From an uncultured Candidatus Saccharibacteria bacterium (lineage in GTDB: Bacteria > Patescibacteriota > Minisyncoccia > Minisyncoccales > MHMH01): a stretch of 30,667 nt of DNA. Location: NCBI GenBank assembly GCA_964486395.1, contig CAZALP010000001.1, forward strand, positions 1 to 30,667. Direction: 5' to 3'. The notes beneath the pieces are model-generated. The model saw only the letters and a program-made list of their open reading frames with translations. It made no database searches and had not been told where the DNA came from. The position numbers were made by a program, and so were the translations under genes. Shown here piece after piece: positions 7,050 through 28,659 of this stretch. Positions within the stretch are counted from its first letter, which is position 1. Each line of letters starts with the position of its first letter.

Positions 7050-8501
7050 ATGACAAAGAAAAAGTTTTATATCTCAACTAGTATAGCTTATACTAATGCT
7101 CCTCCGCATATAGGTTATGCATTAGAGATAATCCAGGCAGATGTGATAGCTAGATATCGGCGGCTTTTGGGCGAAGATGTTTTCTTTTTGACCGGAACTG
7201 ATGAGCATGGGAGAAAGGTGGTAGAAGCAGCTAAAGAGGCAGGGAAAAGCCCTAAAGATTTTACGGACTTGCTTGCAAAAAAATTCAAAAAATTGACCGA
7301 AACTTTAAATATCTCTAATGACGATTTTATTCGCACTACCGATCAAATAAAACATTGGCCATCAGTAAGGAAAGTTTGGTTGGCATTAAGGGAAAACGGC
7401 GATATTTACAAGAAGAAATACAAGGGGTTTTATTGTGTCGGTTGCGAGGCATTTATTACAAAAAAGGATTTGGAAAGCGGTAAATGCAGAATTCACCAAA
7501 AAGAACCTGAAATAGTTGAAGAAGAAAATTATTTTTTCCGGCTTTCCAAATATTCAAAAAAGATAGAAGAGGTTATCAAAAAAGACAAAATTAGAATTAT
7601 TCCCGAGAGCCGAAAGAATGAGATGTTGAGTTTTCTCAGGCAAGGCTTGGAAGACATTAGTTTTTCTCGGCCTAGAAAAGACTTAAAGTGGGGGATACCA
7701 GTACCGGATGATAAAAGTCAGACGATATATGTCTGGGGAGACGCTTTAACCAATTATATTTCAGCTCTTGGTTATTCAAAAAATAGCAAAAAATTTAAAA
7801 AGTTTTGGCCAGCTGATGTTCATTGCATTGGCAAAGATATTCAAAAGTTCCATTGTTTGATTTGGCCGGGAATGTTGTTGTCTTTAGGTTTAGACTTGCC
7901 GAAAAATATTCTGGTTCACGGATTCATCACTGTTAATGGGCAGAAAATGTCAAAGAGCTTGGGGAATGTTATTGATCCTTTTGAATTGGTTGAGAAATAC
8001 GGAATGGATCCCGTGAGATATTTTCTCTTGCGGGAGATTCCGCCGACGGAAGATGGAGACTTTACGCGCGAAAAATTTGAGGGGCGCTATAATTCTGACT
8101 TGGCAAAAGGGCTCGGGAATTTGGTTGCCAGAGTAATAAAAATGGCGCAAATTTCTAATTTCCAATTTTTAATTTCCAATAAATTTTCAAAAACCCACTG
8201 TTCCCACACAGCCAAATTCAAAGCGGAAATAAACAAAACCTGGAAAGAATACCATCGTCTCTTTAACGAGTTTCGGTTTAATGAGGTATTAATGGCGGTT
8301 TGGGAATTGATCGGTTTTTGCGACAAATATATTGAGCAAAAGAAGCCGTGGGAAACCAAGGACAAGAAAGTTATCGGTGATTTATTGCTCGCCCTGAATC
8401 ATATTGCTGAAATGTTAAGGCCGTTTTTGCCGGAAACTTCGGAAAAAATATTGAAACAAATAAAAAATAAAAAAAGTCAGTCTTTATTTCCAAGGATTTA
8501 A
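7050..8501 (+). CDS. metG: Methionine--tRNA ligase (short form, no C-terminal tRNA-binding domain)
   Basis: YTNAPPHIGY (HIGH-like), FLTGTDEHG, knuckle CVGC...CRIH, WGIPVP, YVWGDAL and KMSKS. Confidence 0.97.
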   Translation: MTKKKFYISTSIAYTNAPPHIGYALEIIQADVIARYRRLLGEDVFFLTGTDEHGRKVVEAAKEAGKSPKDFTDLLAKKFKKLTETLNISNDDFIRTTDQIKHWPSVRKVWLALRENGDIYKKKYKGFYCVGCEAFITKKDLESGKCRIHQKEPEIVEEENYFFRLSKYSKKIEEVIKKDKIRIIPESRKNEMLSFLRQGLEDISFSRPRKDLKWGIPVPDDKSQTIYVWGDALTNYISALGYSKNSKKFKKFWPADVHCIGKDIQKFHCLIWPGMLLSLGLDLPKNILVHGFITVNGQKMSKSLGNVIDPFELVEKYGMDPVRYFLLREIPPTEDGDFTREKFEGRYNSDLAKGLGNLVARVIKMAQISNFQFLISNKFSKTHCSHTAKFKAEINKTWKEYHRLFNEFRFNEVLMAVWELIGFCDKYIEQKKPWETKDKKVIGDLLLALNHIAEMLRPFLPETSEKILKQIKNKKSQSLFPRI

Positions 8502-9409
8502 TGTTGATCGATACTCACGCGCATTTGAATTTTAGCGCTTTTAGGAACGATGTCGACGAAGTGATCCGCCGGTCTTTAGGTAATGAATTTTTTGCGAAAG
8601 CAAAAAATTACAGGAGTGGTCGGGAGAGTTGGGTATCCTCCCGCGATGGAAAACCAGCGAGCCGAAGGCGAGCGCCAGAAACCGAAGGCGTCTGGGGAGC
8701 AAAGCGGGAGCGGAACGACGTTTGGATGATTAATGTCGGCTCTCAATTGACTACCAGCAAAAGAGCTGTAAAAATCGCCGAGCAATACGAAAAAGGAGTT
8801 TATGCCGCTGTTGGCCTGCACCCCATTTATGCCCAAGAAAAATTTCAATATGAAAAGTTCAAGGAGCTGGCAAAATCAAAAAAAGTGGTAGCCATTGGAG
8901 AAATCGGCCTGGATTATGAGCCAGAATATGCCCCGTTCGCAGAAAAACAGAAGGAAGTTTTCCGTCAGCAAATGAATATGGCCATAGAATTGGACCTGCC
9001 CGTGATTTTTCACTGTCGCAAAGCGCACGATGATCTTATAGAAGTTTTGTTACAATGGAACAATAATTATACACCTGTAGATTTATTACACCGGGGAGTG
9101 GTTCATTGCTTTACCGGGAAATGGAGCCAGGCAGAAAAATTCTTAGGGATGGGGATGTATTTGGGTTTTAACGGGATAATATTTAAGCTGAATTTGGATG
9201 AAATTATCAAAAAAGTTCCTCTGGATAGAATTTTGATTGAAACCGATTGTCCTTTTTTGACCCCGCCTCAAAAAAGAGGTCGGAACGAGCCGGCCTATGT
9301 AAAATATGTGGCAGAGAAAATTGCTAAAATCAAGAATTTGGATTATAAAGAAATAGCCAAGATTACCACCCAAAATGCCAAAGAGCTGTTTAAAATTATG
9401 GAGAGATAG
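8501..9409 (+). CDS. tatD: TatD family metallo-hydrolase/DNase with an N-terminal insertion of about 44 aa
   Basis: DTHAH, GLHP, GEIGLD, FHCR, HCF, ETDCP and RNEP motifs are intact; extra segment at residues 29-72. Confidence 0.93.
   Translation: MLIDTHAHLNFSAFRNDVDEVIRRSLGNEFFAKAKNYRSGRESWVSSRDGKPASRRRAPETEGVWGAKRERNDVWMINVGSQLTTSKRAVKIAEQYEKGVYAAVGLHPIYAQEKFQYEKFKELAKSKKVVAIGEIGLDYEPEYAPFAEKQKEVFRQQMNMAIELDLPVIFHCRKAHDDLIEVLLQWNNNYTPVDLLHRGVVHCFTGKWSQAEKFLGMGMYLGFNGIIFKLNLDEIIKKVPLDRILIETDCPFLTPPQKRGRNEPAYVKYVAEKIAKIKNLDYKEIAKITTQNAKELFKIMER
8585..8716. mobile_element. In-frame 132-bp structured insertion in tatD (REP/MITE-like)
   Basis: 10-bp perfect stem with GAAA loop (8586-8609), CGGGAG/CTCCCG stem, CCAGA/TCTGG stem and CCGAAGGCG twice; the length is a multiple of 3. 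Boundaries are estimated from the TatD consensus. Confidence 0.6.
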
Positions 9410-10918: not shown

Positions 10919-11686
10919 ATGGCTATTATTTTGGACGGCAAAAAATTATCAGAAAAGATTTTAGAGGATCTTAGAAAGAAGATTAAAAAGAGCGGCAAAA
11001 AGTTAAAACTTGCCGCTGTTTTGGTTGGGGAAGATGAACGATCAAAGATTTTCCTTCGTCAGAAAGAAAAAGCCTGTAAAAAAGTCGGCGTTGACTTTAA
11101 GCTTTACCAGTTTTCCCAAGATATTGGCCAGGAAAAATTAGCCAAAGAAGTAAAGACGATAGGGCGTCACAAATTATGCCATGGCATAGTTATTCAGCTG
11201 CCTCTGCCAGAATATATTAATGCCAATGAAATTTTATCTTTAATTCCGCCGGAAAAAGACGTTGATGCGCTTTCTGGCAAAGCTCTTGTTTTGTCGCCGG
11301 TTTTGGAGGGTATTCTGGAATTACTGAAAGAATACAAAATAGAGCTTAAAGGTAAAAAAGTGGCAGTCGTCGGCAGAGGAAGACTGGTGGGGGAACCGGT
11401 TGCCACCTGGTTTTTAAAACAAGGAATTGAGGTTGTGGAAAATGTCGAGGAAGCTGACGTTATCATTTCCGGAGTTGGCAAGCCGGGATTTGTCATTAAC
11501 GGCAATATAATAAAAGAAGGGGCGGTGGTAATTGATGCCGCAGGGGATGTAGATTTTGATAGTGTGGAAAAAAAGGCGAGCTACATCACTCCCGTTTTCG
11601 GAGGCGTAGGCCCCATGACGGTCGCCATGGTTATTAAAAACCTTATCGTTTTAAACAAGGTTTACCCGGGTAGATTTATGGGTTAA
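10919..11686 (+). CDS. folD: Methylenetetrahydrofolate dehydrogenase/cyclohydrolase (streamlined)
   Basis: ILDGKKLS, QLPLP, EKDVD, VGRGRLVGEP, ADVIISGVG, VID and GGVGPMTVAM motifs. Confidence 0.93.
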   Translation: MAIILDGKKLSEKILEDLRKKIKKSGKKLKLAAVLVGEDERSKIFLRQKEKACKKVGVDFKLYQFSQDIGQEKLAKEVKTIGRHKLCHGIVIQLPLPEYINANEILSLIPPEKDVDALSGKALVLSPVLEGILELLKEYKIELKGKKVAVVGRGRLVGEPVATWFLKQGIEVVENVEEADVIISGVGKPGFVINGNIIKEGAVVIDAAGDVDFDSVEKKASYITPVFGGVGPMTVAMVIKNLIVLNKVYPGRFMG

Positions 11687-16094: not shown

Positions 16095-17618
16095 ATGATG
16101 CAAAAAACCATTTTAATTGGTGGGGAAGCCGGGCTCGGGACGGCTGTCACCTCCCATCTTATCGGAAAAATATTTTGCAGCTTGGGATATTACGTTTTTA
16201 ATTACCGGGATTATCCTTCTTTGATCCGGGGAGGGCATAATTTTAATGTTCTCAGGATTTCTGACAAACCCATTCATTCTCACGAAGAAAAATACGACAT
16301 TATTTTGGCCTTGGACCAAAAAACCGCCGATATTCATGAAAAGGATTTGAATAAAGGCGGTTTTGTTTTTGGAGTTAAAGAGACAGAACCCGTACTTCAA
16401 AAGCTACAAGGCCCCAAGATATTGGCTAATGACGTTTTGATAGGGCTGCTTTTTAAATATTTCGGAGTGGATTTGAAAGTTGTGATGTCCGCAGCCGAAA
16501 AAGAGTTCGGTCAAAAATCGAAATTAATCAAGCAAGCTATCGAGGAGGGCTACGGGCTGACAGACGTAAAGGAAAAGCTGGAAAAAGTCGACAAGGAAAA
16601 ATACTTTATTTCCGGCAACGAAGCCATAGGCATAGGGTCTATTGCCGGGAATGTGGATATACATTTGGCCTATCCCATGACTCCCGCGAGTCCTGTTCTT
16701 CATTTTTTGGCCAAAAATCAGCTGGAAAATAACATTTTGGTTTTTCAGCCGGAGAACGAAATCGCAGTTATCAATGCGGCTTTGGGAGCCTCTTTCACAG
16801 GCGCCAAGGTTCTGGTGGGAACATCGGGCGGAGGCTTTGCTTTAATGACAGAAGCTGTAAGCCTTGCGGGCATGGCGGAATTGCCAATAGTTATTTATTT
16901 AGCCCAGAGGACGGCTCCTTCTACCGGAGTTCCTACTTACACCGCCCAGGGAGATTTAAAATTCGCTTTGAATGCGGGGCACGGCGAATTCGCCAGAATT
17001 GTGGTGGCTCCCGGCGATCCACAGGAAGCCATCATCAGAACCCAGGAGGCCTTTTATTTAACCTGCAAATACAGGACGCCAGCAATTATTTTGGGCGACA
17101 AACATTTGGGGGAATCAAATTACACTTTTGACGAACTTAAAAAATCTCAATTAGCGGGTGTTTCTCACCCGGTGGACAGGGCCAACAGTTATGAACATTC
17201 AGAAAATGGCCACACCGTGGAAGACGCAGAAAGCGTAGCCAGAGGTCAGGAAAAAAGATTGAGCAAGATGCCGTTGATTGAAAAAGAAATTCAGAAGCTA
17301 AATCCCGTTGCTGTTTACGGTAAGGGTAATAATTTAATTGTCAGTCACGGCTCGACAAAGGGAGCCATCCTGGACGCCTTACCTGAACTTCCGGACTTCA
17401 GATTTTTACAAATTTCCTATTTGAGCCCGTTTCCCCGGGAGCAGGTTTCCGATGAAATCAAAAAGTCACAAAAAGTGATTTTGGTGGAAAATTCAGCCAC
17501 GGGCGCTTTGGCCGACTTCATCGCCGAGCAAACCGGTTTAATCATAAAAAACAAAGTTTTAAAGTATGATGGCCGACCCTTCACCCCCGATTATCTTATA
17601 AAAAACATTGTAATATAA
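16095..17618 (+). CDS. 2-oxoacid:ferredoxin oxidoreductase alpha subunit (gamma-like domain fused)
   Basis: IGGEAG, YPSLIRGGHN, SGNEA, YPMTPAS, ENEIA, TSGGGF, QRTAPSTGVPT. The start may be 16095 or 16098. Substrate cannot be assigned from sequence. Confidence 0.93.
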   Translation: MMQKTILIGGEAGLGTAVTSHLIGKIFCSLGYYVFNYRDYPSLIRGGHNFNVLRISDKPIHSHEEKYDIILALDQKTADIHEKDLNKGGFVFGVKETEPVLQKLQGPKILANDVLIGLLFKYFGVDLKVVMSAAEKEFGQKSKLIKQAIEEGYGLTDVKEKLEKVDKEKYFISGNEAIGIGSIAGNVDIHLAYPMTPASPVLHFLAKNQLENNILVFQPENEIAVINAALGASFTGAKVLVGTSGGGFALMTEAVSLAGMAELPIVIYLAQRTAPSTGVPTYTAQGDLKFALNAGHGEFARIVVAPGDPQEAIIRTQEAFYLTCKYRTPAIILGDKHLGESNYTFDELKKSQLAGVSHPVDRANSYEHSENGHTVEDAESVARGQEKRLSKMPLIEKEIQKLNPVAVYGKGNNLIVSHGSTKGAILDALPELPDFRFLQISYLSPFPREQVSDEIKKSQKVILVENSATGALADFIAEQTGLIIKNKVLKYDGRPFTPDYLIKNIVI

Positions 17619-17657
17619 TTTTGCCGATCGGTAAAAAAGTATTATAAGGGAATTTTT

Positions 17658-21623: not shown

Positions 21624-22634
21624 ATGCGTATTTTAGGTATAGATACTTCCTGCGACGATACAGCCGTTGCTTTATTAAAGGTTGGCAATTCGAAGTTCGA
21701 AATTTTGAGCAACATTGTTTCGTCACAAGTAAAAATCCATCAAAAATATGGCGGAGTTTACCCTTTTTTAGCCAAAAGAGAACATCAGAAGAATTTGCCC
21801 ATAGTTTTGAAAAGCGCCATTAAAGGATACAAATTTTCCAACATTGACTTGATTGGAGTGACGGTAGGGCCTGGCTTGGAGCCATGTCTTTGGCAGGGAA
21901 TAAATTTCGCTAAAGAAATTGCAAGAAAACACAAAAAGCCGTTAATCCCCGTAAATCACATCGAAGCCCACATTCTCGCTAATTTCATTAATCGCAGTTC
22001 AACCGCGATTAAATTTCCGGCGGTGGCTTTAGTGGTAAGCGGCGGGCACACGCAGTTAGTTTTAATAAAGAAGATTGGTCAATATAAACTGATTGGCGAG
22101 ACGAGAGATGATGCGGCAGGGGAATGTTTTGATAAGGTAGCTAGAATTCTCGACTTGGGATACCCTGGCGGTCCCGCTATTGCCGCTCAGGCAGCAAAAT
22201 TTAAAAAGGACAAAAACTATACAGGTGTAGAATTATTGTACTCTTTGCCGAGACCGATGATTAAGCAGAAAAATTACGATTTCAGTTTCTCCGGGCTCAA
22301 AACTGCGGTATTATATAAAGTGAAGGAAAAGAAATACAACAAAAAAGCTATGGCAGCTGAAGTTCAACAGGCAATTATTGATGTTTTAATTTATAAAACA
22401 TTGAAAGCCGTCAAAGATTACAAGGTGAAATCAGTACTTCTTGGGGGAGGTGTGGCCGCCAATGACGAATTAAGGAAGCAATTCCGAAAAAAGACCAAAA
22501 TTTTTGTTCCCCCTAAAAACTTATGCACAGACAATGCAGCCATGGTGGCGGCAACCTGCTATTTCCACAGAAAAGAAAGAAAGAAATTAGAAGGCATTAA
22601 GGCCGACGCCAACTTTAGAATTAAAAATTTATAA
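21624..22634 (+). CDS. tsaD: tRNA N6-adenosine threonylcarbamoyltransferase
   Basis: LGIDTSCDDT, TVGPGL, NHIEAH, VVSGGHT, DDAAGECFDK, FSFSGLKT, GGVAAN, TDNAAM. Confidence 0.96.
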   Translation: MRILGIDTSCDDTAVALLKVGNSKFEILSNIVSSQVKIHQKYGGVYPFLAKREHQKNLPIVLKSAIKGYKFSNIDLIGVTVGPGLEPCLWQGINFAKEIARKHKKPLIPVNHIEAHILANFINRSSTAIKFPAVALVVSGGHTQLVLIKKIGQYKLIGETRDDAAGECFDKVARILDLGYPGGPAIAAQAAKFKKDKNYTGVELLYSLPRPMIKQKNYDFSFSGLKTAVLYKVKEKKYNKKAMAAEVQQAIIDVLIYKTLKAVKDYKVKSVLLGGGVAANDELRKQFRKKTKIFVPPKNLCTDNAAMVAATCYFHRKERKKLEGIKADANFRIKNL

Positions 22635-22644
22635 AATTTTAGGT

Positions 22645-22720
22645 TCCCCTCGTGTTGGAAATTATTCAAAACCTCGGGGAGTTGCCCGAAGGCCGCAAGA
22701 GGAATCCGTCTGCGGCGGAT
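22645..22720. repeat. GC-rich REP-like hairpin cluster between tsaD and the MFS gene
   Basis: TCCCC...GGGGA ends, a CCGAAGGC core and an ATCCGTC-tgc-GGCGGAT hairpin. Confidence 0.4.
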
Positions 22721-22730
22721 AAAAGAAGGT

Positions 22731-23981: not shown

Positions 23982-24450
23982 TTGGGCCGGACGATGGAAT
24001 TGGCTGGATGCTTTGGGTATTTTTTCGGCCAAATATTTAATTTTCATACTGGTAGCCCTAGTGATTTTCATTTTTTGGAGAAAACGAAAAGTTATCATCG
24101 GCACCTTTTTAGCGGCAGTTTTGGCCAAATTTGTGATTGTTGATTTGATTCGTTGGATTTGGCCCAAGGCCAGACCATTTGTTGAAAATAATGTTCATTT
24201 GCTTATCAATAAAATTAACCAATCGGCTTTTCCCTCGGGCCATGCCGCTTTTGCCTTCGCTTTATCGGCAGTTGTTTATTTTTATAATAAAAAGGCCGGC
24301 ATTTTATTTTTTGTTGCCAGCTTTTTGATTGCTGTTTCCCGAGTTTTTGTTGGCGTTCATTGGCCATCAGACATTGTGGCTGGAGCCGGAATCGGAATTT
24401 TTTCCGGCTGGCTGGTTATAAGGATTTTCAAAAAGAAAAACTCGAAATAA
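23950..24450 (+). CDS. PAP2 family phosphatase (undecaprenyl-pyrophosphate phosphatase-like)
   Basis: KARPF, FPSGHA and SRVFVGVHWPSD catalytic motifs. Confidence 0.92.
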   Translation: MDYLLFQKINSWAGRWNWLDALGIFSAKYLIFILVALVIFIFWRKRKVIIGTFLAAVLAKFVIVDLIRWIWPKARPFVENNVHLLINKINQSAFPSGHAAFAFALSAVVYFYNKKAGILFFVASFLIAVSRVFVGVHWPSDIVAGAGIGIFSGWLVIRIFKKKNSK

Positions 24451-24477
24451 CAACTATGGTCTTGATTTCGAGTTTTT
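24436..24477. repeat. 42-bp palindrome, copy 1 (terminator-like)
   Basis: 13-bp perfect arms AAAAACTCGAAAT/ATTTCGAGTTTTT overlapping the PAP2 stop codon; a second copy lies at 28618-28659. Confidence 0.85.
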
Positions 24478-28617: not shown

Positions 28618-28659
28618 AAAAACTCGAAATAACAACCATGGTTGCGATTTCGAGTTTTT
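28618..28659. repeat. 42-bp palindrome, copy 2 (probable topA terminator)
   Basis: Same 13-bp arms as 24436-24477, inner CAACCATGGTTG palindrome; begins in the topA stop codon and ends in a T tract on the minus strand. Confidence 0.85.

Follow-up and report, generated by a model that had tools for sequence, protein, structure and literature searches.

Short palindromic DNA in the reading frames of tatD and tsaD of a Parcubacteria-type bacterium, probably copied from a dispersed promoter-proximal element

The window considered here is a stretch of 30,667 nucleotides (CAZALP010000001.1) that forms contig C1 of G000, the 484-kb genome of a Parcubacteria-type bacterium of the candidate phyla radiation (CPR), which is 42% GC and 93.5% complete in 47 contigs and whose homologues carry the names Nealsonbacteria or Parcubacteria. 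Further C-numbers denote other contigs of G000; G001 is its closest relative, from the same genus, while other G-numbers stand for other relatives, L-numbers for loci or contigs and P-numbers for proteins. Two genes of the window, tatD and tsaD, each contain a nearly palindromic 28-bp segment of about 21% GC within the reading frame (Table 1). We consider it likely that both segments are degenerate in-frame copies of a short, dispersed Parcubacteria dyad element, which is natively promoter-proximal and has been copied into protein loops.

The segments in tatD and tsaD and a third copy in argS

At positions 9061-9088, tatD reads CAATAATTATACACCTGTAGATTTATTA and encodes NNYTPVDLL, while tsaD reads CAAAAACTATACAGGTGTAGAATTATTG at 22211-22238 and encodes KNYTGVELL (K-N-Y-T-G-V-E-L-L-Y over the wider copy, which has the outer arms GGACAA...TTGTAC). 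The two 28-mers agree at 22 of 28 positions directly, at 23 of 28 when shifted one base to the left and at 23 of 28 against the reverse complement, and their cores, TACACCTGTA and TACAGGTGTA, are reverse complements of each other. Sequences, coordinates, match and core symmetry are as the initial annotation of this DNA had described them. Each of the two copies keeps 10 of 14 inner pairs.

Taken alone, the pair lies within what chance allows for a window of this kind. The window contains 14 pairs of same-strand 28-mers that agree at 22 positions or more, and dinucleotide shuffles give 5.7 +/- 2.1; the tatD/tsaD pair, at 23 of 28, ranks second among those in the window. The motif GTAGAWTTAT, part of the consensus TAC-N-nn-N'-GTAGAwTTAT first proposed for the element, occurs three times in the 484-kb genome, about four occurrences being predicted from composition by our own arithmetic; an earlier figure of zero expected occurrences applies to a pattern written after the fact. 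Applied genome-wide, the literal consensus recovered only three sites, all in the window, and is no family signature.

The pair is lifted above chance by a third copy, by the confinement of three copies to G000 among the genomes of its order and by a family of related sequences elsewhere. The third copy came from the search for further copies that the initial annotation had suggested, carried out as a whole-genome Hamming scan with both 28-mers: C6:18654-18681 (CAAGAAATATACACCTGTCGATTTATTG) matches the tatD segment at 24 and the tsaD segment at 22 of 28 positions, and shuffled genomes yield 0.2 matches at 21 of 28 or better in the same scan. It lies in argS, encodes KKYTPVDLL and still folds as single-stranded DNA (z -3.5). 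Similarity continues into the flanks, at about 30 of 40 positions between tatD and argS and at 28 of 35 (counted by eye) between tsaD and argS, which have AGGACAA and TTATTGT in common. In the order-level comparison set of 401 genomes, the pattern TATACASSTGTNGAWTTATT is found three times in G000 alone; four other genomes contain one match each at no more than one mismatch, one of them in the TatD gene of G024 and the others stray, and a control pattern, with two matches, reached a level like that of these other genomes. G000 therefore carries three copies, in tatD, tsaD and argS, all within genes.

Codon usage points in the same direction. The cassette codons are minority choices in G000 (fractions of 0.16 for ACA, 0.15 for GGT, 0.18 for GTA, 0.18 for TTA and 0.26 for CCT), and the copies in tatD, tsaD and argS use them almost uniformly, as the palindrome consensus dictates. 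Codon bias can therefore not account for the identity of the copies.

The initial annotation had placed the third member in folD, as a variant with a compensatory base change. The sequence TACCCGGGTAGATTTAT at 11663-11679 does fit the pattern proposed at that time, but it is read in a frame that differs from the cassette frame and encodes VYPGRFMG, the last eight codons of the gene. The folD tail NKVYPGRFMG* corresponds to NNVYPTKFMG* in G001 (CCGACCAAATTTATG in G001 versus CCGGGTAGATTTATG), and since this tail is common to both genomes, GTAGATTTAT in folD arose by point changes in an existing tail. The site has no dyad beyond CCCGGG and does not fold (z -0.1). We rejected it as a family member and regard it as a chance match within a genus-conserved C-terminal tail. 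Of the proposal that the element was inserted independently at least three times, the number of copies in G000 stands, with argS rather than folD as the third host.

Comparison with homologues supports the view that the tatD and tsaD segments were inserted. TsaD has an 8-residue insertion relative to Thermotoga maritima TsaD (6nak_B) exactly at n-y-t-g-v-e-l, and the TatD loop is 6 residues longer than that of T. maritima TatD (1j6o), so that the alignment gaps expected at these sites are present in both proteins. Both loops are hypervariable in length and sequence across 30 relatives. The cassette is absent from TatD and TsaD of G001, although its TsaD is 85% identical to that of G000; the corresponding G001 loop sequences are KFKIRNSKFEIS in TsaD, where the heptamer-repeat loop KIRNSKFEIS takes the place of the cassette, and NLKFKARNSKLRG in TatD. 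In the DNA of both G001 loops, a 7-nt unit is repeated in tandem, (AAATTCG)n. The cassette is present, however, in ArgS of G001 (KKYTPVNLL), and the argS copy thus predates the split of the two species, while the copies in tatD and tsaD would be later gains in G000 or losses in G001. In a TatD tree of 146 proteins, built with the loop columns left out, the 13 cassette-bearing proteins require at least 8 changes, at least 5 of which are forced by supported branches, and G000 TatD groups with the cassette-less proteins of G001, P0112 and G011.

Most TatD, TsaD and ArgS loops of the clade are 7-residue-periodic peptides such as KFEIRNSKFEI, KYKIQDTKYKI and KLQTTNYKLQT (L002, L008, L019, L026, L033; P0018-P0242). 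They correspond to tandem heptanucleotide arrays, (AAATTCG)n and similar, in which the heptamer differs among genomes. The TatD and TsaD loops of G001 have the 14-mer CGAAATTCGAAATT in common, and in G018 another cassette is common to two unrelated enzymes (KYKISPYGRSPEGRQTTSYK in TsaD, L009; RYKISPYGRYLEGRQDTRYK in ArgS, L087).

The host genes carry further repeats. In tatD, a 44-residue in-frame insert (8585-8715, residues about 28-71), absent from all 29 TatD relatives, opens with the perfect hairpin AATTTTTTGC-GAAA-GCAAAAAATT and continues with a GC-rich element of about 100 bp. Copies of the latter lie at C2:26892-26988 (93%), where two 49-bp direct repeats of identical sequence enclose the copy, on the opposite strand at C3:333-445 (80-86%) and, in part, at C4:2084-2191. 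It has no Rfam match, and an Rfam scan of the window returned one tRNA only and nothing at tatD. The 3' end of tsaD with the adjoining spacer (22622-22729) is repeated at C9:12838-12952 (91% over 115 nt), and positions 17607-17654 recur at C2:21931-21977 (90%). An internal blastn comparison of G000 gave 263 repeat pairs in the 484 kb, many of them in families of 50-115 bp.

Table 1. Genes, element copies and related features in the window (C1) and elsewhere in G000, with TatD proteins that carry the cassette
Feature	Position	Strand	Support or remark
tatD, TatD-family hydrolase, host of copy 1	8501..9409	+	Pfam PF01026, 1.4e-78
tatD copy of dyad element	9056..9093	+	conserved 26-mer AATAATTATACACCTGTAGATTTATT at 9062-9087, CC centre
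folD	10919..11686	+	Pfam
folD look-alike TTTACCCGGGTAGATTTAT, judged a non-member	11661..11679	+	other reading frame, VYPGRFMG*
tsaD, tRNA t6A37 threonylcarbamoyltransferase, host of copy 2	21624..22634	+	Pfam PF00814, 2.1e-83
tsaD copy of dyad element, opposite orientation	22206..22243	+	26-mer AAAAACTATACAGGTGTAGAATTATT at 22212-22237, GG centre
second PaaX-like paralog of G000	C13 8952-9473		
TatD cassette carriers			P0005, P0006, P0008-14, P0016, G024

A palindrome family and its PaaX-like neighbours

The cassette peptide, N-K/N-Y-T-P/G-V/D-D/E-L-L, recurs in loops of TatD, TsaD, ArgS and the prepilin peptidase PilD of other Parcubacteria. Region-restricted searches in a collection of 5.8 billion proteins show it in TatD loops reading NKYTGDELLYNG, NNYTGVNLLHQG, NKSTGVDLLPSG, KKNTPDELLIRG and NINKYTPDELLIKG, in TsaD loops reading KINKYTPDELLIQ and NKKYTPVYLLMK (P0125, P0135) and in ArgS loops reading NKFTGVNLL and RKYTGVELL (P0245-P0247). 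PilD has the element in frame in three metagenome contigs (L176, L182 and L192; INNYTPVYLLIM), and G000 PilD has none at this site. The identity holds at the DNA level: the copies in G024 TatD and in the TsaD of contig L118, different genes of different organisms, agree at 28 of 29 nucleotides, and copies from different genomes and genes make identical choices among synonymous codons (ACA, GAC, TTA). Together with the argS copy, this family bears out the initial view that one kind of DNA gave tatD and tsaD their similar loop peptides.

The pattern AANAAHTAYACASSTGWMKAWTTATT, run against metagenomes, matched 35 loci. At about 22 of these, both strands match, so that they are near-perfect palindromes, and most lie outside long open reading frames (ORFs). 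The intergenic near-perfect palindromes have the sequence ATTAATAATTATACA-CC-TGTATATTTATTAAT, and the example TTTGCAATAAATATACA-GG/CC-TGTATATTTATTGCAAA has perfect arms of 17 bp. The tatD 26-mer differs by a single base (G for T) from the canonical intergenic AATAATTATACACCTGTATATTTATT of L118, L171, L182, L189 and L201. On L118, a contig of 35 kb, both kinds of copy occur together: the intergenic copy GATAAATAATTATACACCTGTATATTTATTAATCCAATT lies 4.8 kb from the TsaD copy GATAAATAAATACACACCTGACGAATTATTAATCCAATT, and the two match at 33 of 39 positions including flanks.

As a family, the copies have the consensus AATAAWTATACA-SS-TGTATAWTTATT, in which the outer arms covary; the consensus first proposed was too narrow, because GTAGA is private to the coding copies of G000. 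An alignment of 22 copies over 18 dyad pairs is 80.6% paired, versus 71% in shuffles. The four outer pairs have both of their bases changed in 7-12 of the 22 copies, and G-U pairs are essentially absent; the symmetry is that of a DNA dyad and not that of an RNA helix. A T/T or A/A mismatch at columns 15/30 goes with a CC or GG centre and marks the orientation; by this mark the tatD copy lies one way and the tsaD copy the other. Canonical copies fold at z -7.4 and -2.6.

The DNA is almost identical to its reverse complement, and in one frame it therefore encodes N-(K/N)-Y-T-(P/G)-V-Y-L-L in either orientation. Of the frames of the element, one encodes the tolerable peptide I-N-N-Y-T-P-V-Y-L-L, one the very hydrophobic LIIIHLYIY, and the third contains stops. 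Read with the GG centre, the canonical GGT GTA TAA ends in a stop codon, at which the ORF of the intergenic L171 copy terminates; the coding copies in this orientation carry GAA instead, as in L120 and in tsaD, where GTAGAA replaces GTATAA. In the CC orientation, the canonical V-Y has become V-D in tatD (GTATAT to GTAGAT). The same T-to-G change at the equivalent position of both window copies thus produced the GTAGAW motif on which the first consensus was built.

The non-coding palindromes have a characteristic neighbour. Five independent contigs (L118, L171, L183, L190 and L201; L184 and L186 are identical in sequence to L171) have a gene for a protein of 185-190 residues with the palindrome 7-32 nt upstream of its ATG, and in L202 one copy flanks each side of such a gene. 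The product contains PaaX_M (PF20803), the Cas2-like central domain of PaaX, at 1.4e-18, and has weak winged-helix matches in its N-terminal half. On L118, a near-consensus promoter, TTGACA-17-TACAAT (11 of 12 positions), on the strand of the gene ends 7 nt before the palindrome, which would accordingly occupy about +1 to +26, the classic position of an operator; this palindrome also contains a TATAAT facing the gene. Other genes downstream of the dyad are grpE in L189 and a CapD-like gene in L187. By position, therefore, the dyad would be an autoregulatory operator of PaaX-like genes, and the PaaX-like protein is the putative binding partner of the non-coding palindromes.

PaaX-like genes are present in 0-8 copies per genome in 41 relatives with genomes of 0.5-0.9 Mb. 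Among 30 paralog loci (L206-L235), at least 15 have a 34-42-bp palindrome of their own 4-32 nt upstream of the start, and these palindromes differ in sequence and centre (CATATG, CCATGG, CGTACG), which suggests paralog-specific pairs of protein and palindrome. A PaaX-like paralog lies directly downstream of argS in G001, G009, G014, G018 and G035.

Several related repeats were observed in G000. Between thrS and dnaE, the intergenic site C5:18922-18949 holds a cousin palindrome, TAATAAAAATACGTACGTATAATTATTA, with the same AT-rich arms as the tatD/tsaD element and a CGTACG centre; in G035 (L216), a PaaX-like paralog has a palindrome with such a centre upstream. The palindrome AAAAACTCGAAATAACAAC(C/T)ATGG...ATTTCGAGTTTTT, at 24436-24477 and 28618-28659 in the window, has only these two copies in the genome and is the best 28-mer repeat of the window (25 of 28); in G008 (L213) and G007 (L225), PaaX-like paralogs have essentially this palindrome directly upstream. 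At the end of contig C8 (19012-19142), ten tandem 13-mers CAAGAATATACT(A/G) lie about 120 nt upstream of the PaaX-like gene at C8:18367-18909 (minus strand), and the 13-mer loosely resembles the half-site CAAGAAATATACA in the argS copy.

Origin of the coding copies and competing explanations

The reading that we favour starts from an AT-rich element that measures about 26 bp in its core and 30-36 bp when the variable but complementary outer arms are counted. Its well-preserved copies are intergenic, and its home would be the region upstream of a PaaX-like gene. Copies in one orientation or the other would have entered permissive loops at the surface of TatD, TsaD, ArgS and PilD, where selection would then alter the harmful positions (the TAA stop or the tyrosine to glutamate or aspartate) and the palindrome would decay, leaving behind a helix-N-cap-like peptide. 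The motif Y-T-P/G-x-D/E-L-L resembles a helix N-cap, and this likeness fits its tolerance in loops. In G000, the argS copy would be the older one and the tatD and tsaD copies would have been gained after the two species diverged; tsaD and argS probably received theirs from one source.

The existence of the family, the coding and non-coding copies in both orientations, the repeated gain in the same loops, the link to PaaX-like genes and the absence of the cassette from the nearest TatD and TsaD orthologues are direct observations. That copying proceeded from non-coding to coding sites is what the sequences suggest. Our best guess for the route is trans-mobilisation, as in REP, MITE or RPE elements (see the last section), or templated repair at loops that hold fragile 7-nt arrays in relatives. 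Shared flanks of argS and tsaD, and a change that is a replacement rather than an insertion, favour templated repair or ectopic conversion within G000, while near-identical copies in different genes of different genomes require spread between lineages. A more specific possibility, speculative and on balance unlikely, is that the multi-copy PaaX-like proteins, with their winged helix and Cas2-like nuclease-fold domain, could act beyond regulation in a partnership of the REP/RAYT type, each recognising its own 30-42-bp palindrome and helping to copy it to new sites, coding loops of essential genes included. If so, the ultra-short coding insertions of CPR proteomes would arise as a side effect of a mobilisation system not yet described.

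Several observations speak against the proposal that the coding segments are copies of such an element. The metagenome pattern was built from coding copies, and the inner-arm symmetry of its matches is therefore partly present by construction, so that only outer arms, positions and neighbouring genes are independent of the pattern. When a 24-nt degenerate pattern was run GTDB-wide against 596 Gb of reference genomes, 50 matches in diverse phyla were obtained, which is chance level apart from G024 TatD; matches in RarA and SpeH were identified as native protein motifs and discarded. With 1-3 copies per genome, the element is no proliferating repeat, and no transposase was found associated with it. 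The loop of G000 differs from that of G001 by 35 nt replacing a 23-nt array between identical flanks and not by a clean insertion; no target-site duplication or empty site could be defined, and the flanks show no consistent duplication. In the G000 assembly, there is no cognate PaaX-like gene, the only two paralogs (on C8 and C13) having 35-36% identity, and no such palindrome lies upstream of the C8 paralog, the one upstream region read in this genome. Finally, the tatD and tsaD copies do not fold as single-stranded DNA (z +1.0 and 0.0), and no promoter-like or terminator-like site overlaps them. A hairpin or terminator function of the window copies was rejected on these grounds, and the two copies look like decaying passengers.

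The intragenic copies might instead be working sites of PaaX-like regulators, such as operators, roadblocks or internal promoters, that are kept in the variable loops which compact genomes can afford. This agrees with the presence of the same dyad at the operator position of PaaX-like genes and upstream of grpE and the CapD-like gene, with the folding of the argS copy and its preservation in G001, and with the PaaX-like genes next to argS in five relatives. The tatD and tsaD copies, however, are not conserved within the genus, and their lost inner pairs and fold, the lack of an overlapping promoter-like site and the missing cognate regulator gene all disagree with a working site, which would moreover leave unaccounted for how a 30-bp site entered a gene. 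We therefore consider this explanation unlikely.

An origin purely within the genome, by ectopic gene conversion or templated repair that needs no machinery specific to the element and in which the old argS segment or an intergenic palindrome served as template for breaks in fragile heptamer loops of tsaD and tatD, would explain why tsaD and argS are alike beyond the core (AGGACAA...TTATTGT) and why the change in G000 is a replacement. The heptamer arrays and the common 14-mer in G001 and the loop shared by ArgS and TsaD of G018, another case within one genome, are also in line with it. It does not explain the copies identical at 28 of 29 positions in G024 TatD and L118 TsaD, nor that the same loop received the cassette several times and in both orientations. 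As the sole explanation, it has in our estimate rather little probability.

Selection on the peptide could in principle produce the likeness by convergence: a motif for helix capping or interaction, Y-T-P/G-x-D/E-L-L, would have arisen in each loop independently, and the similarity of the DNA would merely have followed. One standard form of helix N-cap is T/S-x-x-E with hydrophobic residues after it, the DNA pattern also matched unrelated long ORFs of marine contigs that have NYTAEDLF-type motifs, and the LL-HPSEL part of ArgS is kept family-wide. Convergence of this kind is largely refuted by the codon test, since the copies agree with one another, and with the non-coding palindromes, in their rare codons. 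The occurrence of this sequence as perfect palindromes outside genes, the synonymous choices common to different genomes and genes, and a centre that flips from CC to GG as a DNA inversion would do also speak against it, and we regard it as very improbable. Chance likeness of two AT-rich variable loops, suggested by the pair counts in shuffles, the post hoc pattern and the accidental folD match, is refuted for tatD, tsaD and argS by the 24-of-28 argS copy, the three copies in G000 alone of 401 genomes, the related copies elsewhere with their flank identity and the codon test, and is given a negligible probability overall.

If the copies derive from a dispersed dyad element, as we favour, the consequences reach beyond this window. 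Proteins of CPR bacteria, or Patescibacteria, are known for odd insertions of unexplained source, and here a loop peptide common to three essential enzymes leads back, letter for letter, to a palindrome of non-coding DNA whose home in the genome is defined. The element is one of the shortest dispersed DNA units documented within coding sequence. Surface loops of essential enzymes in minimal genomes appear as recurrent landing sites, in which the same loop is reached repeatedly and in both orientations, and the cassettes are tied to a little-studied, multi-copy regulator family with paralog-specific palindromes. Moreover, such cassettes mark insertion-tolerant loops, and they can mislead alignments and phylogenies through false similarity between unrelated proteins.

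Comparison with known repeats and regulatory sites

In a literature search, no paper linking CPR bacteria, PaaX-like genes and in-frame palindromes was found. The element has features of several known systems. It resembles autoregulated operators of the PaaX/MarR type in its dyad, its location at or just downstream of the promoter of its own gene and its paralog-specific sequences, but perfect arms of 15-17 bp are long for an operator. Copies of operators within the coding loops of unrelated essential genes are also not normally seen.

Repetitive extragenic palindromic (REP) sequences are imperfect, GC-rich palindromes of 20-40 bp that occur in hundreds of extragenic copies and have as partner a Y1 transposase of the IS200/IS605 type, the REP-associated tyrosine transposase (RAYT). 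The similarity lies in the size and in the tie to a cognate gene, seen in L202 with its copies on both sides and in the paralogs with palindromes of their own. Here, in contrast, the partner is a winged-helix/Cas2-like protein of the PaaX type, the copy number is tiny and copies lie within genes. Membership of this class was rejected, as the neighbouring gene is PaaX-like and no Y1 transposase, copies are few and two-sided flanking is confined to L202. Compared with MITEs, the miniature transposable elements that have terminal inverted repeats, a target-site duplication and an empty site in relatives, the whole unit consists of the inverted repeat. The dif/Xer site, a 28-bp imperfect palindrome, occurs once per replicon, between genes, and has arms of 11 bp on either side of a 6-bp centre; it was rejected because the three copies in G000 all lie in genes and because the arrangement of arms and centre differs. 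Readings as a diversity-generating retroelement (DGR) or an intein were dropped, since neither fits in copy number, position and size.

Palindromes that must be reconciled with protein function are known from nematomorph mitochondria, whose functional protein-coding sequences contain coding palindromes and inverted repeats (PMC6649704), and PARCEL repeats also lie in protein-coding sequence (PMC2996958). The element has this constraint in common with both, but those repeats are long (up to 284 bp) or form tandem amphipathic modules, whereas here a single short loop unit decays.

The closest known kind appears to be the Rickettsia palindromic elements (RPEs; Ogata et al. 2000, 2002). As summarised in PMC10969869, RPEs comprise ten families of about 100-150 bp with tens of copies per genome, are palindromic and lie both between genes and in frame within unrelated housekeeping genes, at positions compatible with the protein fold. 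The element described here differs from them by its length of 26-36 bp (9-12 codons), about five times shorter, by its 1-3 copies per genome, by its occurrence in another phylum and by the defined position of its non-coding copies before a regulator gene. Phylum, length and composition make homology to RPE families unlikely, a judgement reached from these properties and not from a comparison of RPE sequences. Nonetheless, both are dyad-symmetric repeats of reduced genomes of host-dependent bacteria, both are found between genes as well as in frame in unrelated genes whose orthologues lack the copy, and both add a conserved peptide to the proteins that carry them.

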